Assembly: GCA_046350795.1 (NCBI GenBank)
Contig: JAXLZT010000002.1
Coordinates: 24,293-88,292, forward strand
Direction of reading: 5' to 3'
Length of the DNA stretch: 64,000 bases
From: Minisyncoccota bacterium
Lineage (GTDB): Bacteria > Patescibacteriota > Minisyncoccia > Phycocordibacterales > CALRHW01
Shown: positions 10,537 through 57,162 of the stretch, in pieces
Numbering within the stretch: the stretch's first letter is position 1
Layout: each line of letters begins with the position of its first letter
Notes under the pieces: model-generated
Database searches by the model: none
What the model was told of the DNA's origin: nothing
What the model saw: only the letters and a program-made list of their open reading frames with translations
Made by a program: the position numbers and the translations under genes

Positions 10537-10547
10537 CAGCATATTGT

Positions 10548-10685
10548 CCCGATCGGGGAAGCAGGGTGTAATTCCCTCACAGTGCCGCTACGGTGAAAGT
10601 CCGAATGCCGATCAGGATATAATCCCGAGCAGGAAGACGCGCATATATGCGACGGCAATACTCCTCTCGGCAGAGGAGTATTTTT
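10548..10685 (+). promoter_or_regulatory. Probable cobalamin (B12) riboswitch with terminator-type expression platform
   Basis: GGGAAGCAGGGTGTAATTCCC...CACAGTGCCGCTACGGTGAAAG matches the cobalamin aptamer core consensus (GGGAAG..GGTG.AA.TCC...C.G.CCCGC.AC.GT.AA). The hairpin TACTCCTCTCGGCAGAGGAGTA plus TTTTT (10659-10685) abuts the ATG at 10686. Confidence 0.6.
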
Positions 10686-31854: not shown

Positions 31855-31955
31855 AAACAAAGTATCTAAAAAGGGTACGGACTTTTTGAAGCTTCAAAAA
31901 GTCCTGAAGCGTTCGCGCCGTCGCGCTCACGACCCCCTTTTTAGATACTTTGTTT
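31855..31955. repeat. Structured intergenic repeat element, copy A (family shared with 43505-43625), at a convergent-gene junction
   Basis: 21-bp perfect outer stem (AAACAAAGTATCTAAAAAGGG / CCCTTTTTAGATACTTTGTTT). Conserved core GGGTACGGACTTTTTGAAGCTTCAAAAAGTCCTGAAGCGTTCGCGCCGTCGCGCTCACGACCCCC. Confidence 0.6.
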
Positions 31956-33265: not shown

Positions 33266-34966
33266 TCAGCCTATATCTTTTATTTTCTTTGCTAAGTATC
33301 TTTCTCCGCCCTCCATTTCTTCTGAAAGTTCTACGAATATTTTGTATTCTTCCTCTGTAAGCTCTCTCTTTGAGCTAGCTTTTTCAAGCATCTTTAGGTA
33401 TCGTCTCAAGTCTTTTTTGAGTAATTCAAATACTGCATGCATCTCTTGTTCTGTTTCTGTCTTATCTTTTTCCATCTCACGCTTTAGGTTGTGTGATTTT
33501 CTGATGATGAATAGTATTAATAGGATAAATAGAAGTATCAATACCAGAACAGTTATACCTATTGAGATTATTTGTATTGTTTTTGTACCAAACCACACCG
33601 CCTTTGTTTCCCTTACATTTACAAAGACTTTCTCTGAAGGATCGCTTTTTACTTTGTCTGTTCTTATTGTTTCTGCCCACACTGATACATTACCGATGTT
33701 TCTTATTGGTTCTGTATTAAATGAGAATATGCCATCAGGATTGGATTTTACTGTGTAGCTTTTAGCTTCAAGTCCTTCTTCTTTTATCCATACGACTATA
33801 TCTGACTCTCCGTAGAATGATTTTCCTTGGACTTCAAATTTTGAGTCTACCTGTATGAATTCTGGGTAAGTAGTGATTTTTGGTATCTTTGTGACAGGTG
33901 AGTTTATAGAAACTGTTGATTCTGTGTTGTTGCCAGCCTTATCAAACACTTTTACAGTAATATCTTTTCTTCCTGAAGGTAGAGGAGATAAGATTATTTC
34001 TTGTTCAGAATCAGACTCAACATTTGCTTCTGCTATTTTTTCTTCTCCTAAATATACTTCGTATTTAGATACTCCAGATAGTGCATCTTTTGCAGATACT
34101 GAAAGAGAAATTGTGTCTTCTTCTGTAGTTTTTGAGTATATATTTAGATCTGTTGGTTTTGTAAGATCTATTTGTATTTTTCTACTTGCTATAGGTCCAA
34201 ATCCAGATGAGTTTCTAAATCTAGCGTTTATGAATAGTTTTCCTTCCGGTAGATTTTCAAGGGTCTTTGTCTTTATTGCTGGCTGATAATTTACGTACGG
34301 TACTGTGTCAGAGAATTTACTCAATACGAGCTGAACAGCTAATACTCCAGAAGGTATATCCCAAGTAAAGTTTCCAGATGTTGTGTTGTACCAAGAATCA
34401 GCGTTAGGCATATCTGGAGAGGTTATATTTGGAGCTTTCGGTAGTGAAACAGGGGTTGTTGGTGTCACAGGCACAGTCACGGGTGTTCCAGAGACTGTTA
34501 TAGAGCCACCTCTGGCTTGTGAAAATACATTTGTTCCTTTTCCATCATTTGCTCTAATTGCAGATGAGCCAAAAGATAAGCTAGCAACACCTGCTTTTTT
34601 TGCTCTAAAGTTTACTTTTAATATATTTCCAGTCTGTCCAGAATATCCAGGATTGGGTACGCCACCATTGAAAGATACTATTCCGCTTGTGTTGGAAAAT
34701 GTTGGTTGTTCAATCCACATTGTCATGACTGAGCCAGCTGTGGTGACAGAATCAACACTCAATGTATCAGCAGGGAAGAATAGACTTCCTTCTGCGTTGT
34801 TTACTTTTACTTCGTCAGTCGATATGTATACGGTTGCTGTAAAAGTACCATTTATTGATACTTGGGATTTGTCCAATACCAAGTACATATCTGCTGCACT
34901 CGCTATTGATGGAAGGATAAAAGATAGGCAGAGTATTATTGCATAGATAAATATTTTCCTTTTCAT
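33266..34966 (-). CDS. Membrane-anchored surface protein with N-terminal cohesin-like domain and Ig/FN3-like modules
   Basis: Signal peptide. Cohesin-like segment LVLDKSQVSINGTFTATVYISTDEVKVNNAEGSLFFPADTLSVDSV...GNILKVNFRAKKAGVASLSF. C-terminal TM helix followed by a charged coiled tail. Confidence 0.5.
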   Translation of the reverse strand: MKRKIFIYAIILCLSFILPSIASAADMYLVLDKSQVSINGTFTATVYISTDEVKVNNAEGSLFFPADTLSVDSVTTAGSVMTMWIEQPTFSNTSGIVSFNGGVPNPGYSGQTGNILKVNFRAKKAGVASLSFGSSAIRANDGKGTNVFSQARGGSITVSGTPVTVPVTPTTPVSLPKAPNITSPDMPNADSWYNTTSGNFTWDIPSGVLAVQLVLSKFSDTVPYVNYQPAIKTKTLENLPEGKLFINARFRNSSGFGPIASRKIQIDLTKPTDLNIYSKTTEEDTISLSVSAKDALSGVSKYEVYLGEEKIAEANVESDSEQEIILSPLPSGRKDITVKVFDKAGNNTESTVSINSPVTKIPKITTYPEFIQVDSKFEVQGKSFYGESDIVVWIKEEGLEAKSYTVKSNPDGIFSFNTEPIRNIGNVSVWAETIRTDKVKSDPSEKVFVNVRETKAVWFGTKTIQIISIGITVLVLILLFILLILFIIRKSHNLKREMEKDKTETEQEMHAVFELLKKDLRRYLKMLEKASSKRELTEEEYKIFVELSEEMEGGERYLAKKIKDIG

Positions 34967-35839
34967 TTATTTATTTTTGTAGAATTTCCAAAATCCAAAA
35001 AATACTATCAATATAAATATGATTATACTAATAATTTTCATCCAAGGCTTGCTGTTTTGTGGATTAAAGGTTGATGTCCTTTCGTTACCCGCATTATCTA
35101 TTGCTTTTACTGTAATAAGACTAGAGAGACTCTGGTCTTGTAAAACATAAGGACTTCCTGATCTCACTGGTGCGCGATTTCCTTCTGTTATTTCGTATCT
35201 GTTTATTCCAGAGTCGTTATCTGTAGTAAAGAAACTGATAAAATATTTACCATCAAATAGAGAATGGGTGCTTCCAAAATCTATATTAAATTTATTTGGT
35301 GGAGTTTTATCGTTATTTGTGAGCGACACGAGTTCATTTTCGTTTGTTCCTGATATTTGCACTGGTATTTGAATAGAGTCACCTGAAACTGCGGTTTTTG
35401 TACCTTTACCGTCATTTAGAAATGCTGTTGCATTTACTAGGTTTATTTTTATTGGCTCTGTGTTTGTTGGTTTTACTGCTATTGTGAAAAGTCTCAGAGA
35501 TTTTCCATATACTCCAGCTGTGGTACCACCAACGAAAGATATTTTGTCGCTATTAATATCTAGTGATGGTTTTCTTGGCCATAAGTCAAAGATTGATCCA
35601 CCTGTATTTATAGAAACCACATCTTTTGGTGTACTAAACTTTATTTCACCTTCTATTGCGTTTATTTCTTCGGCCGTATCAAGCATTACTTTTATGATAC
35701 TTGTGTTGCCAACGCTGATTGGTTTTTCTGGTAGGTCAACAAATATTTTTGCTGCATTTGCATAAGAGGGTATTGCAAATACGAAAAGTAATGTTATGGC
35801 TATGCGCGCGGTGATCTTTTGTAAAAGTTTTTTATTCAT
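34967..35839 (-). CDS. Membrane-anchored cohesin-like domain protein (start set at MNKKLLQKIT)
   Basis: Signal peptide. IKVMLDTAEEINAIEGEIKFSTPKDVVSINTGGSIFDLW...LRLFTIAVKPT parallels the cohesin-like segment of the neighbouring gene. C-terminal TM anchor. Confidence 0.5.
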   Translation of the reverse strand: MNKKLLQKITARIAITLLFVFAIPSYANAAKIFVDLPEKPISVGNTSIIKVMLDTAEEINAIEGEIKFSTPKDVVSINTGGSIFDLWPRKPSLDINSDKISFVGGTTAGVYGKSLRLFTIAVKPTNTEPIKINLVNATAFLNDGKGTKTAVSGDSIQIPVQISGTNENELVSLTNNDKTPPNKFNIDFGSTHSLFDGKYFISFFTTDNDSGINRYEITEGNRAPVRSGSPYVLQDQSLSSLITVKAIDNAGNERTSTFNPQNSKPWMKIISIIIFILIVFFGFWKFYKNK

Positions 35840-35849
35840 GATTTTCAAT

Positions 35850-38450
35850 TTATATAACACTTCCGGAAGTGCCCCATTGTGAAAGAAGTATTGAGAAATC
35901 AACAGAGTTGACTGTGCTGTCTTGATTTATATCTACACATTCGTTTTGAAATGGCGCTATATTTTTCCAAAAAGCAAGCAAGATAGAGAAATCTACAGAG
36001 TTTACTATGTTGTCGGAGTTGAAATCTGCACCTTTACATGAGCCGGTATTACCTGATGATGAACTTCCGCCACCACTACTTCCGCCGCCACCACCGCCAC
36101 CGCCGGAGCTACCACCCCCACTGACTGTGAATGTTCTAGATGATCCTGAAGAATCTGTACCGAAGTACACTATGAGTTTGAAATAATAATCTCCTGCAGA
36201 ATCAACTGTCGCTGTAAGGTTTGTATTCCAATCTTCTCCTGGGTTTATAAATTTAGCACCTGTTGCGTGATATTCATCGTCTCCACCGCCACAAGAGTTT
36301 GATGCGCTAGATACAACGCACCATTCGTATTGGTATTCATATCCAGCTAGACCTTCGTTTGTAATTGTTACGTTTGCGCTGATATCAGAGACTGAGTTTG
36401 CTGTAACACTATTTATAATTACCTGAGCAGGGGAGCCAGCTACTAGCCAGTAATCGTTGTTTGTAAGTGTTTTACCACTTTCAACTTGTGTACTTATAAC
36501 ACTTTCCCATACGCCCTGAGTCGCACCAGAGGCTACAGAATATGTGTATTCATATATACCGGTTCCTACAGATGACATCGCAACATTTGATACTGTTACA
36601 TTTCTGAGAGGATCGTAAAGTGTGATTGTTGGTGTAGCAAATGGGGAAGTAGGAACACTGTTGTTATTTCTGATTTCAATTCTAGCTCTGTATGTTTCGC
36701 CAGCTTGAACTTCGTTGAAGTCTGACATTACTGTTGTCCAGCCAGAGCTTCCGCCGATTGCGCTTATCGCTGAAGCAAGAGATGTACTAGCAGTTAAAAC
36801 GCTACTATTTGTATTACTATTCACAGCACTTGTACCAGCTGTGATCGCTGAAGCCAAACTACTTGTCGCTGTCTGTACGTCAGACAATGTTGCGAGACTT
36901 CCGCTTGTGAGTGCTCCGCTTGTTAGAGTACGTACAGAGTTTGACCAGACATCAGACGCAAGTGTGCCGAAAGAGGTGAGTGTTCTACCACTATATGACC
37001 AAATCACTGCAGGAATTGTTGCAAACAAGCTTGATGAAGCTGTTGCGATCTCTGCGTCAGTGTTTGCGTTTACATCAGTCACTATATTCGCTGTCGCACT
37101 ATTGGTATTTGCGTTGATTACAGCAGCCAAACTAGATGTAGCTGTTGTCACCACTGAGCTTGTGTTGCTGTTTACAGCACTTGTACCAGCTGTGATCGCT
37201 GAAGCCAAACTACTTGTCGCTGTCTGTACGTCAGAAAGTGTTGCGAGAGAGCCAGATGTGAGCGCTCCACTTGTTAGAGTACGTACAGAATTTGACCAGA
37301 CACTAGATGTCACATCAGCTACGAGCGTACCAAAAGATGTAAGTGTTCTTCCGCTATATGACCAGATTGTTGCGGGAAGTGTAGCGAATAGAGATGATGA
37401 GGCCGTTGCAATCTCAGCATCAGTGTTTGCATTTACGTCAGTTACTATGTTTGCAGTAGCGCTGTTTGTGTTCGCATTAATAACCGCGGCTAGACTAGAT
37501 GAAGCTGTTGCAACCCTTGAGTCAGTGTTTGAGTTTACGACAGCAGCCAAACTACTTGTCGCTGTCTGTACGTCAGACAATGTTGCGAGACTTCCGCTTG
37601 TGAGTGCTCCGCTTGTTAGAGTACGTACAGAGTTTGACCAGACATCAGACGCAAGTGTGCCGAAAGAGGTGAGTGTTCTACCACTATATGACCAAATCAC
37701 TGCAGGAATTGTTGCAAACAAGCTTGATGAAGCTGTTGCGATCTCTGCGTCAGTGTTTGCGTTTACATCAGTCACCATATTCGCTGTCGCACTATTGGTA
37801 TTTGCGTTGATTACAGCAGCCAAACTAGATGTAGCTGTTGTCACCACTGAGCTTGTGTTGCTGTTTACAGCACTTGTACCAGCTGTGATCGCTGAAGCCA
37901 AACTACTTGTCGCTGTCTGTACGTCAGAAAGTGTTGCGAGAGAGCCAGATGTGAGCGCTCCACTTGTTAGAGTACGTACAGAATTTGACCAGACATCAGA
38001 AACTAAGCTACCAAAGGAGCTAAGTGTACGAGTAGTACTGTTCCAAACAGCATTCGCTATGGTACTTGTAGCAGCTATTGTCGCTCCGACTGTAAAGGTT
38101 TTATTTACTTTCACTAAATCACCGTTAGAAATGTTCCCACACGTCATATAAGTAGGCCAATTGCCCTCACTTTCTCCAGCACCAATAGAAAAATTGTAGT
38201 ATGTCCAACCATTTGCATTGGCTGTCATTGCACCAGCGTTTAATTTTACGCTTCCAGAAGGATCGTAGATAGTCAGAGTACAGCCAGCAGTAGTTGTTGC
38301 TACAAAATCATCATCATAAACAAACTCACCTATAGTAATAGTGTCACCAAGAGAAGCTCTTTGATAGTCCGCTTTTGCTGTATTTGAAAAAGACAAAAAC
38401 AACCCAAAAAATAAAATGCAAAATGCAAAAAAGGGTAGTGTTTTTTTCAT
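35850..38450 (-). CDS. Large secreted dockerin-containing repeat protein (start set at MKKTLPFFAF)
   Basis: Signal peptide. Four or more ~110-aa tandem repeats (WSNSVRTLTSGALTSGSLATLSDVQTATSSLA...NANTDAEIATASSSLFAT). A Gly/Ser linker. A C-terminal type-I dockerin pair (DFNSDNIVNSVDFSILLAFW, DINQDSTVNSVDFSILLSQW) with canonical Ca-loop positions 1,3,5,9,12. Confidence 0.7.
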   Translation of the reverse strand: MKKTLPFFAFCILFFGLFLSFSNTAKADYQRASLGDTITIGEFVYDDDFVATTTAGCTLTIYDPSGSVKLNAGAMTANANGWTYYNFSIGAGESEGNWPTYMTCGNISNGDLVKVNKTFTVGATIAATSTIANAVWNSTTRTLSSFGSLVSDVWSNSVRTLTSGALTSGSLATLSDVQTATSSLASAITAGTSAVNSNTSSVVTTATSSLAAVINANTNSATANMVTDVNANTDAEIATASSSLFATIPAVIWSYSGRTLTSFGTLASDVWSNSVRTLTSGALTSGSLATLSDVQTATSSLAAVVNSNTDSRVATASSSLAAVINANTNSATANIVTDVNANTDAEIATASSSLFATLPATIWSYSGRTLTSFGTLVADVTSSVWSNSVRTLTSGALTSGSLATLSDVQTATSSLASAITAGTSAVNSNTSSVVTTATSSLAAVINANTNSATANIVTDVNANTDAEIATASSSLFATIPAVIWSYSGRTLTSFGTLASDVWSNSVRTLTSGALTSGSLATLSDVQTATSSLASAITAGTSAVNSNTNSSVLTASTSLASAISAIGGSSGWTTVMSDFNEVQAGETYRARIEIRNNNSVPTSPFATPTITLYDPLRNVTVSNVAMSSVGTGIYEYTYSVASGATQGVWESVISTQVESGKTLTNNDYWLVAGSPAQVIINSVTANSVSDISANVTITNEGLAGYEYQYEWCVVSSASNSCGGGDDEYHATGAKFINPGEDWNTNLTATVDSAGDYYFKLIVYFGTDSSGSSRTFTVSGGGSSGGGGGGGGSSGGGSSSSGNTGSCKGADFNSDNIVNSVDFSILLAFWKNIAPFQNECVDINQDSTVNSVDFSILLSQWGTSGSVI
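36830..38000. repeat. Near-identical tandem DNA repeats (about 690 bp x2, each containing about 330-bp sub-repeats) inside the dockerin protein gene
   Basis: Blocks such as TCAGACAATGTTGCGAGACTTCCGCTTGTGAGTGCTCCGCTTGTTAGAGTACGTACAGAGTTTGACCAGACATCAGACGCAAGTGTGCC recur verbatim near 36880 and 37570. The shadow ORF 36715..38151 repeats identical peptide blocks. Confidence 0.7.
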
Positions 38451-38541
38451 GAGAATATTTGATTCAATAATATTTGATTCAAACTGATTAGTAAAGAAAT
38501 ATATCCACAGATTTTTCATTTATTTGTTCAAATAACATGTT

Positions 38542-39153
38542 ATGATATTTATAGTTTTTATGTTTTCCTTTGCACCAAATAAATTTTCTTTTCGTTTAAT
38601 TAGGAAAGGAAAAATAAAAAAAGAAAACGGTGAAAGTGTACCGGCTATTGGCGATTTCGATAAGCGCCTTTTCTTGAAAGTACTTGGTACAGCTGGAGTA
38701 GGTGTGTTTGCTGCAACAATGTTTCCCAAGAAAGCAGACGCTCTCATCATGGGAAGCACTCCTTCTTCTAGTGTTGTTGGGTTAAAAGATGATTCAAATA
38801 CTCGTATAAATCCAGCCACAGAAGAAAGTTTGCAGAGTTTGCTAAGCGGTCAGGGGGTAAACAAAATCACAACAAGCCTGAGCTCGTCTGGCACGGTGGT
38901 TACACCATCTTCTGGTAAAAAGTTGCGTATATATAGTACACGTTTTTCTTTGAGTGCTGATGCCACTTATGTTTCTTTCCGTTTTACATCTGGTGGCACA
39001 GATAAAGAAAAATATATTTCACCAAAAACTGGTGGTTTGTATGGTTCCAACAACCATCCCAACTATATAGAAGGTGGTGTGAATGAAGTTTTTTATTGCG
39101 CTATCAGTGGTACGACTACTGTGCAGATAAATGTGGATTATTTAGAAGTATAA
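38542..39153 (+). CDS. Secreted protein with Tat-like signal (KRLFLK + hydrophobic core + ADA), unknown function
   Basis: DKRLFLKVLGTAGVGVFAATMFPKKADALI resembles a twin-arginine (here K-R) signal peptide with an AxA cleavage site. The start codon is uncertain (no in-frame ATG nearby). Confidence 0.4.
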   Translation: MIFIVFMFSFAPNKFSFRLIRKGKIKKENGESVPAIGDFDKRLFLKVLGTAGVGVFAATMFPKKADALIMGSTPSSSVVGLKDDSNTRINPATEESLQSLLSGQGVNKITTSLSSSGTVVTPSSGKKLRIYSTRFSLSADATYVSFRFTSGGTDKEKYISPKTGGLYGSNNHPNYIEGGVNEVFYCAISGTTTVQINVDYLEV

Positions 39154-39174
39154 TAGTGTATAATTAAAAAAATT

Positions 39175-41835
39175 ATGGCGAAAAGAGCGATAGAACATTT
39201 ATTTACCGGCACGACAACACCGTATTCCGTCTATGATTCTACAAAAACAGTTTTGGGTGACTTGATTCAGCAATACACAGGCGCGACTTCAACAGACAAA
39301 TTTGCCGGACCAACAAAAATCGGTGTCGCTAGACCCAACGAAACCGGTACAGCTATACCAGCTATTTATCCACACGTTATTTCTTGGGCTGATAAGAGAG
39401 GTTATTATAGCACTGGTACTGTATCTGCTTCAGGCACCTCTGTAACAGGTAGTGGTACATCATGGATTTCAAACGGTGTACCAATCGGTGCGCAAATTGG
39501 TTTTGGCAGTACAGATCCAGGGTCAATCACAACCTGGTATACCATAAGCACTGTTCCTTCAAATACTTCTATTACAATATCCTCTTCTGCTGGCACAATA
39601 GCTGGCGGAACATCTTACGTTATAAATAAAGAATTACAAAAAGATTGGGTATTTTTGGCTGACAACGCCACAGCGGCTGCCACTCGTCGTATTACTTGTT
39701 TTGAATACAATAGATCGACATCACTTTTTTCTTGGAGAGGTTTTATTACCATTACATATCCTTCTGGAGGAGGTAATCAAACCATCAGAGGTATGCGTGT
39801 GATATATGACACATACACCACAGGAACAGTCGGTGTTTCTGGTGCTACGGTGACAGGTAGCGGTACTACTTGGTCTGCTGATCGTATTGCCATTGGTTCA
39901 AGAATTGGTTTTGGTAGTACAGATCCCACTCAAATATCTACTTGGTATTATATAAATGCCGTCGGTGGCGATACTTCTATTACTATTCAAACAAACGTTA
40001 CTGCCAGTGGTACTGGAGGTACTGCTGCAAACATTTCCATAGCTTCAAGCACTGCTTATGTTATAGAAGATTTAAAGGTGCTGACAGCCACCACTGCTGT
40101 GGTGGTTGCTGCTGGAGGTTTGGCGGTGGTAAATGGTCTCTCTTATGATGATTTTGCTGTTGGAGGTACTACTATCGCTGCCGCGACTACAGTAGACAAA
40201 ACAAAAGCTGTATATTGTTTGGTTGATTTGGACTCTCTATATTCTACTGGTACCGTAACAGTGCCTTCTTCTACTACAGTTACAGGAAGCGGTACTTCTT
40301 GGGCAGCTGCAACACACTTGGGTTGTATGATTGGTTTTGGATCTACAAATCCAGCTTCTATTACTACTTGGTATACTATTACGGCGGTTGGTTCTACTAC
40401 ATCACTCACCATTTCTTCTGCAGCAACAGTTTCTGGAGGTACTGCGTATGTGATAGTGGGTGGAAACGGTATTTCTGGTGGTTTGGCTATTGATGATAGA
40501 GTGAGTTGGACTGAACAACATGCATATATTATTGAGGTCCAGGCTGGTACGACACCTCAGGTATATAAATACAATTTTCGTGCAAATTTAAACACATTAG
40601 GAAACGTGGCAGCAGGTAAGTCGGCTTGTGGCTGGATGCTTACTACTGGTACACAGACTGTTACAGGTACAGTTTCTCAGACAAACAACGGAAGAATAGG
40701 AACTTTGTCCCACGGTCCAGGATCTGGTGTTAAATGTTTATATTTTGCTGCCACAACTCGTATTCATAGGGCACCCCTTTCTGCTATTGTTCAGGGAAGC
40801 TCAACGTGGGTATCTGATTCTATGACCGAAATACCTACTGGAGGTACTGGTACATATACCGCTTCGAGTCTTATGACATCTGTAGAAATTGCTGATCAAA
40901 TAGACAGACTTATTATCACATCTACAGGTGCTGGAGGTACTACAGCTCACCATCGTGCTTATATTACAAAGTATGATTCTTCTGGTTCTTATGTTTTTGA
41001 TCACATATTTTTGACAGATAGTGCCCAGCAAGATCAATCTACAGCAGATTCTGATTCTACACCTCATCCAAATCCTCAGGGTGCTGCTTTGTCTGTATGG
41101 TCACAGGGAGGATTGGTATATATGGCACGTACTGGTACAGCTTCTACTACAAACATAATGTATTCAGTACCACTTGGTGCTGATTGGCAGTATGCTGACG
41201 GGACGGTAAAACAAAGACTTGTTACACCTGAGCTTTCTACCACAAACGCTACAAAACTTTCTCGTGTGTATATCAACGATGTCGGATATTTGGGATCAGG
41301 TGGTCTCACTATGCCTACAGAGCCGATTCGTATTTATTATAGAACTACTGGAATAGATGATGATTCTGGAACTTGGACACTAGTAGATCAGACGGGGGAT
41401 TTGGCAGAAGCAACACCAGCATCTACTGTACAATTTGCTATAGAGTTTAGATTAATTGGTGCCACATGTATACCAAATAGAGTTTTCAATTTGTGTTGTA
41501 CATACGAGGACAATACAACAGACAGTCATTATCAGCCGTCTGTTGCGCAATCTTCGATTACAAGCAAGCGTTTTGCATGGAGATTTTCAACAGCGTTTGG
41601 TGGTACTGTGCCGACTCTCAGAATACGACTATATAATGCAGAGACAGATGGTTTGATTTTGGATGATACAACCACAGCATCTGCTTCTGGAACATTTGAG
41701 AAGTCTACTGATGATGGTCAAAACTGGGGTTCATACAATACAACAGACAAGGGAAATGAAACTACTTACATTCGTTATACACCGACATCTTTGGCTGATG
41801 ATATAAAAGTAAGAGCCCTTTTAACTCAAAACTAA
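39175..41835 (+). CDS. 886-aa protein with three ~70-aa Trp-containing internal repeats; unknown function (surface/fibre-like)
   Basis: Repeats: GTSVTGSGTSWISNGVPIGAQIGFGSTDPGSITTWYTIS; GATVTGSGTTWSADRIAIGSRIGFGSTDPTQISTWYYIN; TTVTGSGTSWAAATHLGCMIGFGSTNPASITTWYTIT. Ser/Thr/Gly-rich with no recognisable catalytic motif. Confidence 0.45.
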   Translation: MAKRAIEHLFTGTTTPYSVYDSTKTVLGDLIQQYTGATSTDKFAGPTKIGVARPNETGTAIPAIYPHVISWADKRGYYSTGTVSASGTSVTGSGTSWISNGVPIGAQIGFGSTDPGSITTWYTISTVPSNTSITISSSAGTIAGGTSYVINKELQKDWVFLADNATAAATRRITCFEYNRSTSLFSWRGFITITYPSGGGNQTIRGMRVIYDTYTTGTVGVSGATVTGSGTTWSADRIAIGSRIGFGSTDPTQISTWYYINAVGGDTSITIQTNVTASGTGGTAANISIASSTAYVIEDLKVLTATTAVVVAAGGLAVVNGLSYDDFAVGGTTIAAATTVDKTKAVYCLVDLDSLYSTGTVTVPSSTTVTGSGTSWAAATHLGCMIGFGSTNPASITTWYTITAVGSTTSLTISSAATVSGGTAYVIVGGNGISGGLAIDDRVSWTEQHAYIIEVQAGTTPQVYKYNFRANLNTLGNVAAGKSACGWMLTTGTQTVTGTVSQTNNGRIGTLSHGPGSGVKCLYFAATTRIHRAPLSAIVQGSSTWVSDSMTEIPTGGTGTYTASSLMTSVEIADQIDRLIITSTGAGGTTAHHRAYITKYDSSGSYVFDHIFLTDSAQQDQSTADSDSTPHPNPQGAALSVWSQGGLVYMARTGTASTTNIMYSVPLGADWQYADGTVKQRLVTPELSTTNATKLSRVYINDVGYLGSGGLTMPTEPIRIYYRTTGIDDDSGTWTLVDQTGDLAEATPASTVQFAIEFRLIGATCIPNRVFNLCCTYEDNTTDSHYQPSVAQSSITSKRFAWRFSTAFGGTVPTLRIRLYNAETDGLILDDTTTASASGTFEKSTDDGQNWGSYNTTDKGNETTYIRYTPTSLADDIKVRALLTQN

Positions 41836-41836
41836 T

Positions 41837-42445
41837 ATGATTCACATAGAAAATAATTCAGAGATTATAGAGAATAAAAATTTAAGAGTCGCTTCTCCTA
41901 CAGGTGATTATGAAGACACTGCTCTTGTAGATTTCTTTGATATTAGTAAGCCGGGTATGGTAGCTGGTTCTTTTCAGGCTCAATATATAAAATATGGCGG
42001 TCTCGTTTATAAATTTAACGAGCCATCAGAGCTCGGTGAAGCTATTTTAAAAGTAGACCCAGAATCTACACATTCAGCGGCATCTTATGTGCGCATGAGC
42101 AAGGAGCTTTTGGCTCAGATGAATGGTGGCACCCTAGATTCTTCTTCTCTTGATCAAATTAGGGTTGAAGAAAAAAATATTGTAGAAGAATCAGAGCCTG
42201 TAATACAAGAGCCAGCAGTACAAGATCCTGTTGTAGAAAAACCAAAAAAGCCAGAAAGGACTCGCAAACCAACACTTTCTTCTATGGACGGCGCTTTGTC
42301 TACTACCACTCCAGTTACCACCACATCATCTGATAACATAATAGAAGATGTCCAGTCTGTGGTAGAAGATGTTACCGTAAAAGCAGAACAAATCTCTAGA
42401 ACAGCAGAAAAAATATCAGATGTTGTAGAACAAATCGTTAGATAA
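41837..42445 (+). CDS. Acidic hypothetical protein with Pro/Glu/Thr-rich low-complexity tail
   Basis: 202 aa. The start overlaps the preceding stop (translational coupling). No motifs recognised. Confidence 0.4.
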   Translation: MIHIENNSEIIENKNLRVASPTGDYEDTALVDFFDISKPGMVAGSFQAQYIKYGGLVYKFNEPSELGEAILKVDPESTHSAASYVRMSKELLAQMNGGTLDSSSLDQIRVEEKNIVEESEPVIQEPAVQDPVVEKPKKPERTRKPTLSSMDGALSTTTPVTTTSSDNIIEDVQSVVEDVTVKAEQISRTAEKISDVVEQIVR

Positions 42446-42449
42446 AAGC

Positions 42450-42629
42450 TATGGCTCTTACAGATGTAAATTTTAATGAGGGTGAGGTGCAAGATTTTTT
42501 ACTGGAAATACCAACCGCTGTTTACTCTGGATCTTTAGAGGATGTCTTGGTGGAAGAGTCAGGTAGTCAAACATTGATGTCTGAGATACCAGAAGCCTCT
42601 GGCGGAAATATCTTCATAATGTCAGAATA
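42450..42629 (+). CDS. Small acidic hypothetical protein (59 aa)
   Basis: An ATG 5 nt after the previous stop and an uninterrupted frame (MALTDVNFNEGEVQDFLLEIPTAVYSGSLEDVLVEESGSQTLMSEIPEASGGNIFIMSE). Confidence 0.3.
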
Positions 42630-42634
42630 GTGGG

Positions 42635-43366
42635 GTGGATGGATTAAAAGAAAATTTTAAAAAGTTTCTACCTTATTTAGAGGATTTACGTAGGAAGCTC
42701 TATTTTTCTACAATATTCTTTCTTGCTGTTTTTATAATAGGTTTTTTCTCTTCTGCTTTTATTATTAAAAGTGTAGTAGATATCTTTAGAATGAGTGGTG
42801 TGGTTATTGCCACTACTTCTCCATTTCAATTTGCAGATGTTGCAATGGATATCGGCTTTTTTTCAGCCATTATTTCAACTCTACCAATAGTGGTTTTTCA
42901 GATTTTCTCTTTTGCTTCTCCGGCACTTACCAATAGAGAGAAAAAATGGTTTTTTCTAGCTGTACCTATTAGTATTATATTTTTTCTGTCAGGATTTTCT
43001 TATGGTTTCTTGATTCTTTATTATTCTTTTGGTCTTTTAGCAAAAATAAATAGCGGTCTTGGTGTGCAAAATATATGGGACGTAAGCTCTTTTTTGTCAC
43101 AGATTTTTATTACGTCATCACTTCTTGGTGTGGTATTTCAATTTCCAATTATACTAACGGCTCTAATAAAAATCGGTATTATTAGTCGAGACTTTTTAAG
43201 TCAAAAGAGGCGCTTTGCTTACTTCTTGGTGTTCGTTCTGGTGTCTTTACTTCCACCTACTGATGGGCTATCATTATTAGCAATGGGATTGCCATTGGTT
43301 TTTTTGTACGAATTTACAATTTTAATTAATATTAAAAAACAACAACATGTTTGGATTAGGAACTAG
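42635..43366 (+). CDS. tatC: Twin-arginine translocase subunit TatC
   Basis: 243 aa and 6 TM helices. The N-terminus LEDLRRKLYFSTIFFLAVFIIGFF is typical of TatC. Confidence 0.7.
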   Translation: MDGLKENFKKFLPYLEDLRRKLYFSTIFFLAVFIIGFFSSAFIIKSVVDIFRMSGVVIATTSPFQFADVAMDIGFFSAIISTLPIVVFQIFSFASPALTNREKKWFFLAVPISIIFFLSGFSYGFLILYYSFGLLAKINSGLGVQNIWDVSSFLSQIFITSSLLGVVFQFPIILTALIKIGIISRDFLSQKRRFAYFLVFVLVSLLPPTDGLSLLAMGLPLVFLYEFTILINIKKQQHVWIRN

Positions 43367-43505
43367 AGAGCTCATAATACTTGCGATAATCTTCATTCTA
43401 CTTTTTGGTGCAAAGAAGATTCCAGAACTTTCAAAGAGTATAGTAGAGGCTATCAGACACATGAGAGGTGCTTTCAAGGATATTGATGAGCCGAAGAAGA
43501 AGTAG
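43347..43505 (+). CDS. tatA: Twin-arginine translocase subunit TatA/E (52 aa; below the ORF-track length cutoff)
   Basis: MFGLGTRELIILAIIFILLFGAKKIPELSKSIVEAIRHMRGAF matches the TatA consensus (MFG.G..ELIII..I.LLFGAKKLPELG...G..IR.F). Overlaps the tatC 3' end. Confidence 0.65.
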   Translation: MFGLGTRELIILAIIFILLFGAKKIPELSKSIVEAIRHMRGAFKDIDEPKKK

Positions 43506-43625
43506 GTAACAACAAAACAAAAGACCTTCTCAGGGTACGGATTTTTTGAAGCTTAAAAAATCCTGAAACGCTCGGCTCGACAGCCTCGCGACCCCCTTCG
43601 AAGGTCTTTTGTTTTGTTTGTTACC
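43505..43625. repeat. Structured intergenic repeat element, copy B (same family as 31855-31955), spanning the whole convergent tatA / pseudouridine-synthase junction
   Basis: 25-bp outer stem (GGTAACAACAAAACAAAAGACCTTC / GAAGGTCTTTTGTTTTGTTTGTTACC). Core GGGTACGGATTTTTTGAAGCTTAAAAAATCCTGAAACGCTCGGCTCGACAGCCTCGCGACCCCC. Internal hairpins change in a compensatory way relative to copy A. Confidence 0.6.
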
Positions 43626-44419
43626 TAAAATCCCAAACCTTTCATAAACACATTGAGTTCTTCTCCTTTTAGCTCGCGGTAGCTACCTTTTGGTAATTTG
43701 CCAAGCTCTAGATTCATGATGCGCACTCGCTCTAGATCTACCACGTCGTTGAAAAGTGCAACGCACATGCGGCGGATCTGATGTTTTTTTCCTTCTGTAA
43801 GTATGATTCTAAACAAGTGATCGTTTATTACTTTTACTTTACAAGGCTTCGTCGTGTAGCTTTCTGTACCTTCTATGCGTACACCAGATTCCATTTTTTC
43901 TTTAAAATTTGCACGCAATTTTTCGCGAGTTTTTACAATGTATTCTTTTTCGTGAATATAGTCAGGGTTTAAAAGTTTGTCTGTGATACGGCCGTCATTG
44001 GTAAGTATTAAAAGTCCGTGTGAGTCCTTGTCGAGTCGGCCGACAGGGAAGACGCCATTTAGTTTTGTAGCACTGAGGACATCTTGCTCACCACGCTGAG
44101 GGGAGTGGGTGATCACTCCAACCGGCTTGTTGTATATGTAGTAGACATATTTTTTTGTTAGACTTCCTCCGCGCACTTCTACTAGATCATTTTCTTGTAC
44201 TTTGTCGCCAAGCACTGCAAGTCGGCCGTTGATATAAACTTTCTTTTTTTCCACGAGTTCATCGCCACCTTTTCGGGTAGCGTATTTTTTCAAAGCTAGA
44301 TATTTATTTATTCTCATTGGAAATTCTGGCTTTAATGGTTCGTTTATTTTGTTTGTTTTAGATGTTTTCATGTTGGCACTATAGCATATAAATAGCACAT
44401 AAATGTTTAAGGACCCCAA
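43625..44419 (-). CDS. rRNA pseudouridine synthase (RsuA/RluB family) with N-terminal S4 domain
   Basis: INKYLALKKYATRKGGDELVEKKKVYINGR (S4-like) and the catalytic-region motif GRLDKDSHGLLILTNDG. Confidence 0.75.
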   Translation of the reverse strand: MGSLNIYVLFICYSANMKTSKTNKINEPLKPEFPMRINKYLALKKYATRKGGDELVEKKKVYINGRLAVLGDKVQENDLVEVRGGSLTKKYVYYIYNKPVGVITHSPQRGEQDVLSATKLNGVFPVGRLDKDSHGLLILTNDGRITDKLLNPDYIHEKEYIVKTREKLRANFKEKMESGVRIEGTESYTTKPCKVKVINDHLFRIILTEGKKHQIRRMCVALFNDVVDLERVRIMNLELGKLPKGSYRELKGEELNVFMKGLGF

Positions 44420-49617: not shown

Positions 49618-52600
49618 GTGGTATTAATAATTTATGAAAAAACCACAAATTTTATGAAAAATCTCTTATTTATTGGGGCAAGAGGGCAAAAACACAGTCT
49701 TTTATCAAGGTTTTTTATTAAATCGACAGCAGGGCTGTTGATTTTTTTATTTGCTTTTCCGGTGGGGGTAGTTTGGGGAGAAGATCACAGTATCGATAAA
49801 AACCACAACAGATCAGCTGAAAAAACAGATACAATAAAACCATCAGACCCAGAAAAACACGATGTTGGTGTTGTACCAACTATATCTGAAGTAGCTCCAT
49901 CTCATAGATCAAAAAAGGATTCTAGAGATGAATCTGATAAGGAGGTGGTTCCACAGTTATTGCTTGATGAAGATGCAAATAATATAGTAGAAAATCCTAG
50001 TTCAATAAAAAGTTTATTGCCTGACGTTGATACTTTTTCTGGATCTCTTGTTTATAAATATCCAATAGTTTTGCCAGCTGGTCGCAACGGTCTTACCCCA
50101 AGTCTTGATCTTACATACAATAGTGGTTTGTCATTAAATAATAGTATTTCTGGATACAACTGGTCTCTTTCTATTCCTTTTATAGAACGTATAAACAGAA
50201 AAGGTGCTGACAAGCTTTACTCAAGGAATGATTTTGTATCGTCTCTTTCAGGTGAGCTTGTAGCAGAAAATGGTACCACTAAATATACAGCAAAAGTTGA
50301 TGAAGGTTCTTTTCTAGATTATACATTCACAAATGATACTTGGACTGCTGTAGATAAACAGGGAACAAAATATACTTTCGGCTCTACTACTCAGTCACGT
50401 TTAAACAATGCTTCTAACGCATCAGAAACTTATCGTTGGATGGTGGAAGAGATTCGTGATAAAAATGACAATTTCATTAGATTTGAGTATGAAAAAGACA
50501 GTAATCAAATCTATCCTTCAAATATTTTTTATACAGGATATGGAAGTACGGACGGTATTTTTGAAGTAAATTTTAATTATGAAAATAGAGAAGATGAAAC
50601 CAATAGTTTTGCATCAAGATTTGAGATGGTTACTTCAAGGCGTCTTGAGAACATAGAAATAAATATAAACGGTGTTTTATCAAAGAAATATTCTTTAGCA
50701 TACATCGCTGGTCACAACACCGTCAGATCTTTATTAAAATCAATCACTGTGTCGGCTGGAACCACCACATTGCCTGCAACGGAATTTGAATATCAGACTA
50801 TACCAAAAAAATTAGAATTTAAACCTGATGTTTTTCAGTCACCATCATTTTACAGGCCATCTACATCAGATTATGCTTTTATTGAATTAAAAGAGAGTCC
50901 TGAATCTACAAATAGACTTGTTGATGTCAACGGCGATGGTCTTTTGGATTTTATACGTACTTCTAATAGCGAAAACAGTGATGGTATTGTTCATGACATA
51001 AATAATGATTTGCCTCGCGTTTTCCTAAACACAGGTCATAGTTGGGAATTTAATCCAGATAAATACCAGTTACCTTCTTATTACCGACCTAGTACAAATG
51101 ATTATAAGTATATGGTTCTAAATGATGTCAATAAACTCATTGATGTTAACGGGGACAATTTACCAGATTTTATTCATACTTCAGATGTAGCTGATGCTGA
51201 TGGTGTGATCACTAACAACAATGATGGTTTCCCGAGAGTCTATTTAAATACTGGTAATGGTTGGGAATTTAATCCAGATAAATATCAATTACCTTCTTAT
51301 TACCGACCTAGTACAAATGATTATTTTTTCTTTCAGACAAAAGAAGAGGAGCACGATGTTACGCAGATAATAGATGTCAACGGTGATGGGCTACCAGATT
51401 TTGTGCGTACATCCGACGATGAGGATGCTGATGGTGTTGTTCTTAACAATAACAACTCTGCTCCTCGTGTATATCTAAATACTGGTAACGGTTGGGAATT
51501 TAATCCAAATAAATATCAACTTCCTGTTTATTACAGACCTAGTACAAATGATTATTATTTTATGGCACTTAAATCTGTCCCAGGATCTACAAACAGACTT
51601 ATTGATGTCAATGGTGATGGGTTAGTAGATTTTTTGAGAACAAATGACACTGAGGATGCTGATGGAGTTGTTTTAAATAACAACGGTGATGCACCACGTG
51701 TTTATCTAAATACTGGCAACGGCTGGGAATTTAATCCAGATCACTATCAGCTTCCTGTGTATTACAGACCGCCTACAAATGATTATCATTTTATGGCACT
51801 TAAGGAGTTTACACAGCTTGCTGATGTAAATGGCGACGGTTTGCCAGATTTTGTCCGTACAGACGATGGTGAGCATGCGACGGGTGTTATAACAAATCTA
51901 AATGGTGATGGTCCACGTGTTTATCTAAACACAGGAAATGGTTGGAAGTTTGATCCCGATTTGTATCAGTGGCCGGCATTTTACAAGCCAGCTACAAACA
52001 ATTATGAGTGGAGAGCTTTGAAGACTAGTAATCAGCTCATAGATATAAACGGTGATAATCTATTGGATTTTGTGCGCACATCTGCTGGTGAGGATGCTGA
52101 TGGACTAATACTTAATAATAATGGTGATGGATCTCGTGTATATATAAATACAGGAAAAGGTTGGGAATTTAACCCTGATTTATATCAATTACCTTCGTAT
52201 TATAGACCGTCTACATCAGACTATTATTTTATGCAACTTTCATATTACTCTAAATTTGCTGATATAAACAACGATGGATTGCAAGATTTTATTAAGACTA
52301 CAAGCGAATTTGATTCTGATGGTCTTATTCTGAATAATCTAAACGATGGTGCAAGAGTATACCAGAATGTTGGGGAAACCGCTGATTATTTAGCAGCTGT
52401 TATTTTTCCAGAGGGTGGAGAGGCACATTTCGATTATCAACTTGAAATAATAAACGGCAGAAATCCAAGTAGTCCATATTATTCTCAAAATGTTTCTGTG
52501 CTTAAAGATATTGTCATAGATGATGGTCTGGGGAATCTAGCAACAAGTACATATAAGTACAAAGATGGAGAGTATTTTTATCATAACGATCCATTTAAAC

Positions 52601-56691: not shown

Positions 56692-56723
56692 TAATCAAAG
56701 ACATCTAAGACAACCAAAAACAG

Positions 56724-56752
56724 CACTTGAGTGCTGTTTTTGGTTGGACGCT
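56724..56752 (+). terminator. Intrinsic terminator hairpin (member of a 2-copy direct repeat)
   Basis: CCAAAAACAGCACTTGAGTGCTGTTTTTGG. Confidence 0.6.
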
Positions 56753-57048: not shown

Positions 57049-57061
57049 ATGCTTCAAATCA

Positions 57062-57088
57062 AAAACAGCACCAAGTGCTGTTTTTGAT
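57062..57088 (+). terminator. Intrinsic terminator hairpin, second copy of the 56724 repeat
   Basis: AAAAACAGCACCAAGTGCTGTTTTTGATTTG. Confidence 0.6.
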
Positions 57089-57162
57089 TTGTCATTATAG
57101 TGGTTTAAGTCCGCCTGTATGGGACAGTCGCCCACGTCTAACCAACGCGGGCTTCTTTTTTA

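Follow-up and report, generated by a model that had tools for sequence, protein, structure and literature searches.

A Parcubacteria-group family of dispersed gene-end palindromes with a conserved folded core and strand-symmetric pairing

The structured repeat that follows tatA (copy B) belongs to a family of palindromic elements scattered between genes and specific to ultra-small Parcubacteria, of which we found ~55 distinct copies in eight genome bins or more. A nearly invariant 64-nt core of three helices tops the long hairpin, and the pairing constraint on this family is strand-symmetric. From its position and anatomy, copy B is best read as a REP-like hairpin at gene ends, acting on either strand as a bidirectional terminator or as a 3′-end protector, a reading to which we give a probability of roughly 0.4. 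Copies persist vertically with a frozen core and rewritten helices, and with occasional inversion, loss or replacement by a sister core. The "folded RNA" reading is only partly supported, and copy B does not look like an RNA gene read from one strand.

We analysed a 64,000-nucleotide stretch of DNA (the window), in which copy B lies between tatA and an rRNA pseudouridine synthase gene:

43503..43505, plus strand: tatA stop codon TAG, whose final G opens the copy B palindrome
43505..43529, unstranded: copy B 5′ arm GGTAACAACAAAACAAAAGACCTTC, made up of an A/C-rich tract and a short segment with GC, GACCTTC
43533..43596, plus strand: copy B core, 64 nt, covariance model score 97.4 bits
43533-36 with 43591-96: P1, GGGT pairing with ACCC, with two extra C left over in the second segment
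43537-38: J1/2, AC
43539-43563: P2, GGATTTTTTGAAGCTTAAAAAATCC
43564-68: J2/3, TGAAA
43569-43590: P3, CGC-TC-GGCT-CGAC-AGCC-TC-GCG
43600..43625, unstranded: copy B 3′ arm GAAGGTCTTTTGTTTTGTTTGTTACC, with a T-rich tract
43625..43627, minus strand: stop codon of the rRNA pseudouridine synthase gene (CTA; TAG on the minus strand), within the palindrome
43625-44419, minus strand: rRNA pseudouridine synthase gene, with PF00849 homologues

Every feature that the original prediction had described for copy B is present, including the overlap of the outer stem with both flanking stops, as the tatA TAG and the pseudouridine synthase CTA fall inside the palindrome. The arms are 92% complementary over 25 nt and, counting the stop codons, 80% complementary over 20 nt more. 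The predicted minimum free energy is −61.1 kcal/mol (z = −9.6), and none of 200 shuffles was equally stable. The second copy in the window, copy A, lies after an ABC-F gene:

31855..31872, unstranded: copy A 5′ arm AAACAAAGTATCTAAAAA, beginning 7 nt past the ABC-F stop codon (31846-31848)
31873..31937, plus strand: copy A core, 65 nt, P3 subtype GCGC-CGTC-GCGC, covariance model score 93.6 bits
31938..31955, unstranded: copy A 3′ arm TTTTTAGATACTTTGTTT
31963-31965, minus strand: stop codon of an FAD-protein gene, after the 3′ arm

Copy A contains 21-nt stretches (31855-31875 and 31935-31955) that are 100% complementary, and its predicted minimum free energy is −50.5 kcal/mol (z = −9.5; 0/200 shuffles equally stable). 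Both copies share a core of 63-64 nt built of P1 (GGGU/ACCC), P2 (an AT-rich hairpin), a UGAAR joiner and P3 (a GC hairpin with a UC/UC internal loop). This core caps an A/T-tract hairpin of 21-27 bp that lies directly against both stop codons, and the 58-59 nt between the arms are predicted to fold into two hairpins. The paired changes reported between the copies were all confirmed, namely GGAC/GTCC in A against GGAT/ATCC in B, GCGC-cgtc-GCGC in A against GGCT-cgac-AGCC in B, and the Y/R change in CGY...RCG. The outer stem, on the other hand, is not "entirely different": both copies carry ACAAAACAAA / TTTGTTT, and the differences are confined to the inner 8-11 bp. Likewise, the junctions described as identical and unpaired include three segments that pair, GGGT with ACCC as P1, the GG of GGGTACGG as the foot of P2, and CGY with RCG as the foot of P3. 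The latter covaries between C-G and U-A, and is UUU/AAA in some copies.

A covariance model gave 90 canonical matches in 772 kb (89-103 bits, E below 1e-20). A three-block pattern search of species-representative genomes returned 38 stretches, of which 36 were true and all belonged to the Patescibacteria/Parcubacteria group, against a chance expectation that we estimate at ~0.6 in 596 Gb. Several pattern matches (L004, L034, L042, L044, L051, L061, L073, L081 and L091) were discarded on inspection as chance hits in GC-rich genomes. Metagenomes contributed 43 further matches. All canonical matches fall in Parcubacteria-group DNA, and no copy was found in viral contigs, phage records or plasmid records. 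About 6-11 copies were found per partial genome bin, and two in the 64-kb window. Spare DNA is scarce in the tiny genomes of these CPR bacteria, which nonetheless retain tens of copies of an element 110-150 nt long with a 64-nt core. The subfamilies are discrete and do not form a continuum. When the covariance model was broadened (R2), it picked up core 4 (54-63 bits) and missed cores 2 and 3, whose relatedness is based on modules matched by eye (an AT-rich hairpin whose loop is TGCT, and GCTCGCGCC..GCGCTC). There is also a larger, class-2 form with a 118-nt shell and a bulged C in the middle helix. Rfam 15 models gave no family for copy B at gathering score; a permissive scan of 43480-43650 returned only generic long-hairpin matches such as miRNA precursors and leaders, at 9-25 bits against cut-offs of 35-150. 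Literature searches found no description of such an element in Patescibacteria. The ~55 distinct sequences, together with sister cores that share modules, are ready for biochemical tests.

The original prediction had proposed selection on a folded RNA rather than a simple terminator. That the structure is under selection, and goes beyond a plain terminator loop, was borne out by alignment of 54 distinct sequences. In total, 96.6% of cells were paired, 19 of the 26 pairs had double changes (208 double-change cells), none of 500 shuffles gave values as high, and slid controls were only 40-63% paired. Double changes were also found in 23 of the 44 pairs of the class-2 form. Nor are the copies recent duplicates with identical flanks, since they occupy different loci in at least eight bins, and orthologous copies are retained between genomes even at a flank identity of just 69-85%. 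Neither result that the original prediction had named as its refutation was observed. For four orthologous pairs the core was identical at 64/64 positions, while flanks were 69-94% identical (below 86% in three of the pairs) and arms 73-91%, with the inner helix rewritten by multi-base compensatory changes. A core that stays 100% identical amid diverged flanks and compensatorily rewritten helices indicates selection on sequence in the core and on structure only in the helices. Positions that are not complementary are also conserved inside the palindromic segments (the UC/UC loop, the two extra C and the class-2 bulged C). That the 64-nt core is more conserved than the adjoining housekeeping genes points to a sequence-specific partner, and the frozen unpaired bases likewise suggest one, either protein or nucleic acid.

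The covariation does not show the asymmetry of an RNA selected on one strand. In RNA helices, several percent of the pairs are usually G-U. Here, wobble cells numbered 4 of 1381 in the 54-sequence alignment and 1 of 880 in the class-2 form. Mismatches in the arms comprised 22 G:T and 38 A:C, with no strand bias, and relative to the mRNA strand our tally was 17 versus 15. Neither cores nor arms thus follow the rule for a one-strand RNA, by which G-U is tolerated and A-C, its counterpart on the other strand, is left unselected. Moreover, both strands fold into mirror-image structures equally well as RNA or DNA (z ~ −9.3 to −10). The claimed "classical signature of a folded RNA" therefore holds as regards a selected, covarying structure, but its single-strand RNA reading is not supported, given the missing wobble pairs, the missing strand bias and the inversions described below; by itself, that signature would mislead for this repeat. 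With strong covariation, no wobble or strand bias and an apex that flips, the family is a clean natural case for separating RNA-level from DNA-level covariation.

Orientation is neither fixed nor random. Among 32 copies classifiable by crude ORF calls, 13 cores were sense and 6 antisense to the neighbouring genes, 7 lay between convergent and 6 between divergent genes; 6 of the 19 co-directional copies are thus antisense, and core orientation is not constant relative to the transcription unit. The core is inverted between orthologous sites next to LemA (L013 versus L029) and S1 (L003 versus L018). Orientation was kept in 11 of 13 orthologous comparisons, and we therefore rejected frequent programmed inversion (an inverton) as the rule. 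On contigs with several copies, all lay on one strand in 9 of 11 cases, MHTH01000013 and L009 being mixed, and 37 of 50 cores sat on the G-rich strand (positive GC skew when oriented by the core). Core-oriented GC skew follows the gene strand and cannot separate replication from a gene-strand effect, so we did not retain a tie of core orientation to replication. The non-random orientation (9/11 contigs, 37/50 cores) leaves room for a strand-specific role. In addition, the reverse strand never gave a full covariance-model match, and in this respect the two strands are distinct objects.

The position of the copies relates them to gene ends. The core starts at a median of 39 nt past a stop codon and 72 nt short of a start codon, and most hairpins overlap the stop codon or begin right at it. 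The genes upstream have housekeeping functions (S1, SecY, EF-P, L9, RecA, GyrA, TrmD, GatB and FtsW; in the window, ABC-F for copy A and TatA for copy B), and the 20 neighbouring proteins examined were all housekeeping, with no transposase among them and no RAYT, the IS200/IS605-type Y1 transposase whose gene REP/REPIN repeats flank. Sites also change over time. A closer relative, L040, lacks the entire hairpin, arms included, at its ABC-F/FAD junction. L018 and L009 have a different core family at the same site. Other seemingly empty sites held different cores with different arms. Insertion of the core into the loop of a pre-existing terminator is unsupported, as the sole clean empty site, L040, lacks the arms too. 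Near-identical copies, arms included, occur at different loci of one genome (for example L003-, L005, L011 and L015 in MHTH01), and contigs break at copies. Reading the flanks, we saw no duplicated target site, nor were there fixed termini beyond the core; the arms differ between copies.

Taken as a REP-like gene-end hairpin, the element would combine arms like the A-tract/T-tract terminator stems of this genome with a tip that is a self-folding cap instead of a small loop. In this cap, the GC clamp P1 would bear two mini-hairpins, the AT-rich P2 and the GC-rich P3 with its UC/UC internal loop, and could hold both arms near each other, so the long stem would still close. The hairpin would act on whichever strand is exposed or transcribed, stopping or attenuating transcription from both directions at gene ends and shielding the upstream mRNA at its 3′ end, as proposed for the REP/BIME elements of E. 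coli. The family probably spread by some copy mechanism. The retention of tens of copies with so conserved a core points to an unstudied layer of gene-end control, or of genome maintenance, in a large uncultured branch of bacteria.

REP/BIME elements of Enterobacteria, including REPINs and IHF-binding BIME variants, are similarly dispersed extragenic palindromes past stop codons and between cistrons. Like the repeat, they fold on either strand, have a proposed role in termination and protection of upstream mRNA, and occur as several families per genome. REPs are defined as simple stem-loops of 20-40 nt whose stem is conserved and which carry a GTAG/CGTC tag at an end, and of the superfamilies so tagged, the CGTC type also occurs without a known transposase (PMC3733652). 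The repeat differs in that its conserved part is a 64-nt three-helix cap, its long stem is locus-specific, a terminal GTAG/CGTC tag is absent (CGAC/CGTC occurs only as the P3 loop), copies number tens and not hundreds, and orthologous cores are frozen over large divergence.

Class-1 copies, A and B included, also resemble bidirectional intrinsic terminators in that a stem containing GC is flanked by an A-tract and a T-tract past a stop codon; like these, A and B separate convergent genes, and their hairpins start at the stop codon. The arms of the window's ordinary terminators follow the design of A and B, with loops of 2-14 nt:

57055..57091, unstranded: ordinary terminator hairpin CAAATCAAAAACAGCAC-caa-GTGCTGTTTTTGATTTG, with the arm design of the copies, a 3-nt loop and no core
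56711-56746 and 27710-27761: similar ordinary terminator hairpins

Several observations speak against the terminator reading. The canonical loop of a terminator is 3-8 nt, whereas the "loop" of the repeat is a conserved 64-nt structured domain, far longer than intrinsic terminators canonically have. Next to the stem, class-2 copies have no proper T-tract, as their only run of four T (AGTTTT) is split from the main stem by an internal loop, and they would thus be poor canonical terminators. Unlike terminators, some copies lie within operons or between divergent genes; the latter are 6 of the 32 copies classifiable by crude ORF calls, and no terminator is needed there. In ~10 co-directional cases 20 nt or less are left before the next start codon, so that full termination would silence the downstream gene. 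Finally, a purely structural role leaves the invariant unpaired bases unexplained.

The manner in which the hairpins change may reflect replication. The wobble-free compensations and core flips could arise by template switching in the palindrome during replication, followed by selection for the hairpin. Template switching can fix the pairing of a stem in one step, invert loops and produce wobble-free compensation at the DNA level (PMC8794818). The repeat shares with these cases one-step multi-base compensation, perfect stems and loop inversions (in its arms and at the two flipped sites). That study treats rRNA and miRNA stems, and the process explains how hairpins change, not the role of the element.

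Less probable than the gene-end hairpin, although conceivable, is a new functional class of structured nucleic acid in Parcubacteria, comprising the 64-nt three-way junction, its sister cores and the class-2 shell, under purifying selection at each locus and read by a partner. It could be an RNA module (protein-recruiting, ligand-sensing or self-cleaving) that would make 3′-end formation conditional, or a cruciform or single-stranded DNA site for chromosome maintenance in minimal genomes.

We consider it rather unlikely that the family is selfish mobile DNA, a non-autonomous foldback (MITE- or REPIN-like) without host function whose single-stranded hairpin would be moved by an enzyme encoded elsewhere, with the conserved core as its recognition site. 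Dispersal (two copies in the window, ~6-11 per partial bin), the near-identical copies at different MHTH01 loci, presence or absence between relatives, different core families at one site, discrete subfamilies and contig breaks at copies all agree with mobility, and the missing wobble pairs suit DNA hairpins. Correia-type and MITE-like repeats are co-transcribed with neighbouring genes, and their long hairpins can terminate transcription or be cut by RNase III. Along with Correia elements of Neisseria, ERIC, RUP, BOX and Rickettsia palindromic elements, the repeat is an intergenic foldback of 100-150 nt. However, Correia and MITE-like elements have conserved terminal inverted repeats and target-site duplications, whereas here the conservation is central, no duplication was seen, and the outermost arms vary and yet stay complementary, which does not match a MITE. 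The 20 neighbouring genes include no transposase, fixed termini outside the core are missing, and the phage, plasmid and viral collections contain no copies. Selection for mobility would also not keep resident orthologous cores 100% identical amid flanks of 69-85% identity, although gene conversion from other copies could mimic this pattern.

A functional RNA transcribed specifically from the GGGUACGG strand, be it a small RNA, a protein-binding module or a new self-cleaving ribozyme, appears improbable. Invariant junction bases and covarying helices around a three-way junction, with a conserved internal loop and bulges, would suit such an RNA, as would purifying selection on sequence, the sense majority (13 versus 6), the 37/50 cores on the G-rich strand and a reverse strand that never matches the model in full. 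The 17-35 bp arms would be RNase III substrates, and a stable small RNA might be freed from the long stem, for example by this enzyme. Against this, the six antisense copies of the 19 co-directional ones oppose the sole expected transcript, two orthologous sites have opposite core orientation, wobble pairs are almost absent and mismatches have no strand bias. In the region scan no promoter-like signal stood out, and reading the arms showed no conserved promoter-like motif; a TCGACA at the P3 loop is similar to a −35 box, yet CGTC variants show that it is unconserved, and no properly spaced −10 accompanies it. A guide-like role of the variable helices was also considered, but the two arms pair with one another. 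No ribozyme or other RNA family matched at E up to 10. Hammerhead junction strands read CUGANGA and GAAA, with UH at the cleavage site. Three helices meeting at a junction with invariant bases are common to hammerhead and repeat, and the C-U-G-A after the first hairpin and the P1-closing U-A, with an unpaired A after it, are reminiscent of positions 3-6, 15.1/16.1 and 17 of the hammerhead. A hammerhead was nevertheless rejected, since the repeat lacks both the second GA of CUGANGA, reading CUGAAAC/CUGAAGC instead, and the GAAA strand, with only one A linking P3 to P1, and matches no hammerhead model at E up to 10; in the repeat, moreover, orientation relative to genes is not fixed.

Of similarly low probability is a DNA-level site, a cruciform or single-stranded hairpin read by a chromosome-handling protein independently of transcription, with a role in replication priming, recombination or nucleoid organisation. 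Strand-symmetric pairing without wobble, the equal folding of both strands as DNA and an orientation that is independent of gene direction and locally concordant on contigs are consistent with it, and the conserved non-complementary positions recall DNA hairpins recognised by proteins. The copies showed no tie to origins, termini or recombination genes, however, the mixed orientation on MHTH01000013 and L009 contradicts a strict replication rule, and the tight placement just past stop codons is better explained by transcription. Two known kinds of recombination site fit poorly. Integron attC sites have R″/L″...L′/R′ boxes and a GTTRRRY core site, and stand in co-oriented cassette arrays near intI. 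The arms of the repeat are CAAAAC...GTTTTG and not RYYYAAC...GTTRRRY, and its copies are single, in both orientations and placed after housekeeping genes. P2 as a 9-7-9 recombinase core site is argued against by its symmetric double changes and by stable synteny.

Chance, or two look-alike ordinary terminators, is scarcely credible: the arms do resemble this genome's ordinary terminators, but fold z-scores near −9.5, the 90 covariance-model matches in relatives (all with E below 1e-20), the covariation of the helices and 36 true among 38 stretches where ~0.6 was expected refute it.

As a side observation, a scan of the window for tRNA and tmRNA genes found none, and its sole Rfam match at gathering score was an AdoCbl-II riboswitch at 10541-10618.

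The structured repeat between tatA and the pseudouridine synthase gene (copy B, window 43505-43625) is one of a group of conserved, strand-symmetric, multi-helix palindromes at gene ends. When the sequence was re-read, the region proved to be laid out as the original prediction had described it, and all the paired differences that it listed between this copy and copy A (31855-31955) were found. A repeat finder likewise bore out a palindrome spanning both stop codons, with 25-nt arms at 92% complementarity.

Copies A and B (window coordinates)
43503-43505, tatA stop codon TAG; its last G is the first base of the copy B 5' arm
43505-43529, copy B 5' arm, 25 nt, GGTAACAACAAAACAAAAGACCTTC
43533-43596, copy B core, 64 nt
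43600-43625, copy B 3' arm, complementary to the 5' arm, GAAGGTCTTTTGTTTTGTTTGTTACC
43625-44419, minus strand, pseudouridine synthase gene; its stop codon overlaps the last base of the copy B 3' arm
31873-31937, copy A core, flanked by an ABC-F gene and, convergent to it, a FAD-protein gene
31855-31875 / 31935-31955, copy A arms, 21 nt, perfect

Copies B and A adopt the same fold (MFE -61.1 and -50.5 kcal/mol, z = -9.6 and -9.5, respectively). Their outer stems had been called entirely different; this is true of the inner 8-11 bp, whereas ACAAAACAAA/TTTGTTT is common to both. Similarly, the junction blocks described as unpaired are in part paired, GGGU/ACCC forming P1 and CGY/RCG the foot of the second hairpin.

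Parts of the three-helix core
P1 (copy B), GGGU/ACCC pairing, with two extra C left over
J1/2 (copy B), joiner AC
P2, AT-rich hairpin of 9-11 bp, loop GAAGCUU, replaced by UGCU in the sister families and the divergent copy
J2/3, joiner UGAAR
P3, 3-bp foot CGY/RCG, 2x2 UC/UC internal loop, 4-bp stem, loop CGAC or CGUC

The covariation persisted with more copies: standard pairs filled 96.6% of core pair cells, and 19 of 26 pairs had changed on both sides over 54 distinct sequences, bearing in mind that copies from related bins are not independent and that sequence counts overstate the number of evolutionary events. None of 500 shuffles reached these values, and sliding the partners by 1-3 columns lowered pairing to 40-63%. 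Three copies have exchanged the P3 foot CGC/GCG for UUU/AAA.

A three-block pattern derived from copies A and B retrieved 38 stretches from the species-representative genome collection. The 36 true copies all lie in Patescibacteria/Parcubacteria-group bins (Vogelbacteria MHTH01 and MHTK01, Paceibacterota JBAYKU01, Parcubacteria SICJ01 and CALRHW01, and a few labelled Saccharibacteria). The same kind of pattern gave 43 true copies in metagenome contigs; seven matches in GC-rich DNA were discarded as chance. When a covariance model built from 37 copies was run over 772 kb, it returned 90 matches at 89-103 bits, then one divergent copy (contig stretch L031) at 69 bits and, below it, a sister family at 33-41 bits. 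Viral contigs, phage records and plasmid records contained no match to the element, no Rfam family matched it even at E up to 10, and no description of such an element was found in the literature. All genomes compared are metagenome bins; the closest relatives of the window are SICJ01, a Parcubacteria bin from Lake Baikal whose proteins at the copy A locus are 76-87% identical, and assemblies with pseudouridine synthases 96% and 89% identical to that of the window.

The flanks of the core come in two forms. In class 1, which includes copies A and B, A5-core-T5 sits within an A-tract/T-tract stem resembling the ordinary terminators of the window, such as CAAATCAAAAACAGCAC-caa-GTGCTGTTTTTGATTTG at 57055-57091. 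Class 2 is a longer unit with a fixed distance of 118 +/- 1 nt between AAAACTY and RAGTTTT. Its internal loop is conserved, whereas its middle and outer helices vary, the middle one around a bulge that is itself conserved; double changes were found in 23 of its 44 predicted pairs.

Sister cores (positions in retrieved contig stretches)
L047 8659-8732, L046 1053-1126, L088 5231-5304, L076 2130-2207: core 4, 33-41 bits with covariance model R1 and 54-63 bits with the broader R2
L009 322-436, L024 3451-3547: core 2 (51 nt), structured apical core of long hairpins
L018 5799-5910, L021 1127-1223: core 3 (68-69 nt), structured apical core of long hairpins

Core 4, with GAGC/GCTC as P1 and UGCU as P2 loop, occurs in the 118-nt class-2 shell that also carries the canonical core. 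Cores 2 and 3 were not recovered by the broader model; as read from their sequences they are probably related to the canonical core, since all have an AT-rich hairpin closed by a TGCT loop and a second hairpin, GCTCGCGCC..GCGCTC.

The core starts at a median of 39 nt past the stop codon, the hairpin itself usually at that codon or overlapping it. Between co-directional genes the upstream stop is nearer to the element than the downstream start in 18 of 19 cases, and in about 10 no more than 20 nt remain before the next start codon (start codons being approximate), which places the element inside the operon. The upstream genes are ordinary housekeeping genes, and none of 20 neighbouring genes examined belongs to a mobile element. 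We classify the element among dispersed gene-end palindromes, nearest in working to REP/BIME or Correia-type intergenic hairpins and bidirectional terminators. However, it has neither the short GTAG/CGTC-tagged palindrome of REP, nor the conserved terminal repeats or target duplication of Correia-type hairpins, nor the small loop of bidirectional terminators. Hammerhead and attC identities were rejected. The novelty lies in the inverted pattern of conservation, with a frozen three-way-junction apex on locus-specific stems, together with persistence at orthologous sites and restriction to Parcubacteria. The probability that the core is a functional RNA or DNA module of a truly new kind is, by our estimate, roughly one in four.

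The element is vertically inherited, its core frozen and its helices free to vary, and is occasionally inverted, lost, copied or replaced. In four orthologous pairs the core is identical at 64/64 positions, whereas identity is 73-91% in the arms and 69-94% in the surrounding, largely coding sequence (<86% in three pairs). In these pairs both sides of the inner arm helix have changed, for example from GTCGGTGC/GCACCGAC to GCCACCAGC/GCTGGTGGC between L001 and L075. By our own arithmetic, an unconstrained core would stay identical in the most diverged pair with a probability of roughly 0.74^63 (~6e-9). Because the 64-mer is unchanged despite 15-30% divergence nearby, its sequence, unpaired bases included, is either under purifying selection or repeatedly restored through conversion from a family consensus that is itself constrained; in the helices only pairing is required. 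Whole P3 subtypes differ in other orthologous pairs, which points to replacement by sequence from elsewhere in the family. Where the window and SICJ01 have copy A, a closer relative (L040) has an ABC-F/FAD junction of 25 nt without a hairpin, and two sites with a canonical core in one genome carry core 2 or core 3 in another, with unrelated arms. Four MHTH01 copies at different loci have ~90% identical arms, indicating recent copying. Such dispersal and turnover would suit a purely selfish foldback element, but we consider this unlikely, as resident cores are frozen and no transposase was seen among the neighbouring genes.

Of the 1381 pair cells in the core alignment only 4 hold wobble pairs, and of the 880 in the class-2 alignment only 1, whereas the helices of RNA families usually contain several percent of G-U pairs. 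The fast-evolving arms contain 1046 Watson-Crick pairs, 22 G:T and 38 A:C, and mismatches relative to the mRNA strand in co-directional settings show no asymmetry (17 versus 15). Both strands give mirror-image folds of equal stability, as RNA or DNA. Crude mechanical ORF calls placed 13 copies in sense and 6 in antisense among co-directional genes, 7 between convergent and 6 between apparently divergent genes. At the orthologous site downstream of the LemA gene, L013 and L029 (flanks 86% identical) carry the core in opposite orientations, as do L003 and L018 at the site downstream of the gene for ribosomal protein S1; orientation was kept in 11 of 13 orthologous comparisons with non-identical flanks. 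These orientation calls are reliable, since the covariance model never matches the reverse strand at full length. Given the near-absence of wobble, the symmetric arms, the equal folds and the mixed and inverted orientations, the pairing constraint acts alike on both strands and needs no fixed direction relative to transcription. This weakens the original prediction of a folded RNA under selection: its covarying helices and invariant junctions stand and, with the majority of sense copies, would fit a strand-specific RNA, but the antisense and flipped copies and the missing wobble pairs make that improbable. A DNA-level protein site would fit the strand symmetry, but we hold it equally improbable.

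We tentatively favour, with a probability of about 0.4, a REP/BIME-like gene-end hairpin with a partner-read core that evolves by template switching. By analogy with REP/BIME, the hairpin would act on whichever strand is transcribed, as a bidirectional or partial terminator and 3'-end protecting structure. The self-folding cap may let the very long stem close, and the invariant unpaired bases would serve a putative sequence-specific partner. Replication template switching in palindromes yields wobble-free multi-base compensations and apex inversions (PMC8794818); followed by selection for the hairpin, it could account for those seen here.

Several further features were observed. Contigs often end in or beside copies, and the 96%-identical relative of the window breaks inside copy B. 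The metagenome contig L060 joins, around 9374, the upstream flank of the L005-locus copy to the downstream flank of the L015-locus copy, and L039, L010/L030, L053 and L089 stop inside or beside copies; these junctions and ends reflect either breaks and chimeras that arose at the repeat during assembly, or genuine recombination among copies. In the window, ~10 kb (33266-43505) of repeat-rich large surface-type proteins, tatC and tatA separates the FAD-protein and pseudouridine synthase genes. As these genes are only ~17-23 nt apart in the relatives L040 and L035/L041, the block looks like an inserted island with copy B as its right edge. Gene packing around copy B is very tight, the tatA start overlapping the tatC end by 20 nt (43347-43366).

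Ordinary terminator-like hairpins lie at 27710-27761, 56711-56746 and 57055-57091 (17-19 bp A-tract/T-tract stems, 2-14 nt loops); two of the three have AAAAACAGCAC as an arm, so that similar copies exist among plain terminators here too. The only Rfam family match in the window is an AdoCbl-II (cobalamin) riboswitch aptamer at 10541-10618 on the plus strand (57.2 bits against a gathering score of 36.5). Long direct repeats at 18317-20674 and 50787-52241, with periods of 1521 nt and 219/231 nt, lie within large-ORF regions and resemble repeats in the coding sequence of large surface proteins. Elsewhere, units of ~115 nt with a conserved inverted repeat ATCCCGTTAGAAAC...GTTTCTAACGGGAT (L005 3878-4114, 5555-5671 and 6984-7094; L031 1087-1205), present in Vogelbacteria and one other bin, look, because of their conserved termini, like a classical MITE, unlike the element studied here. 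Finally, L007 carries at 1700-2104 and 3738-3854 arrays of ~55-nt units with alternating short inverted repeats (gggtgagac/gtctcaccc and ttgcctgac/gtcaggcaa), which may be guide-RNA-like.
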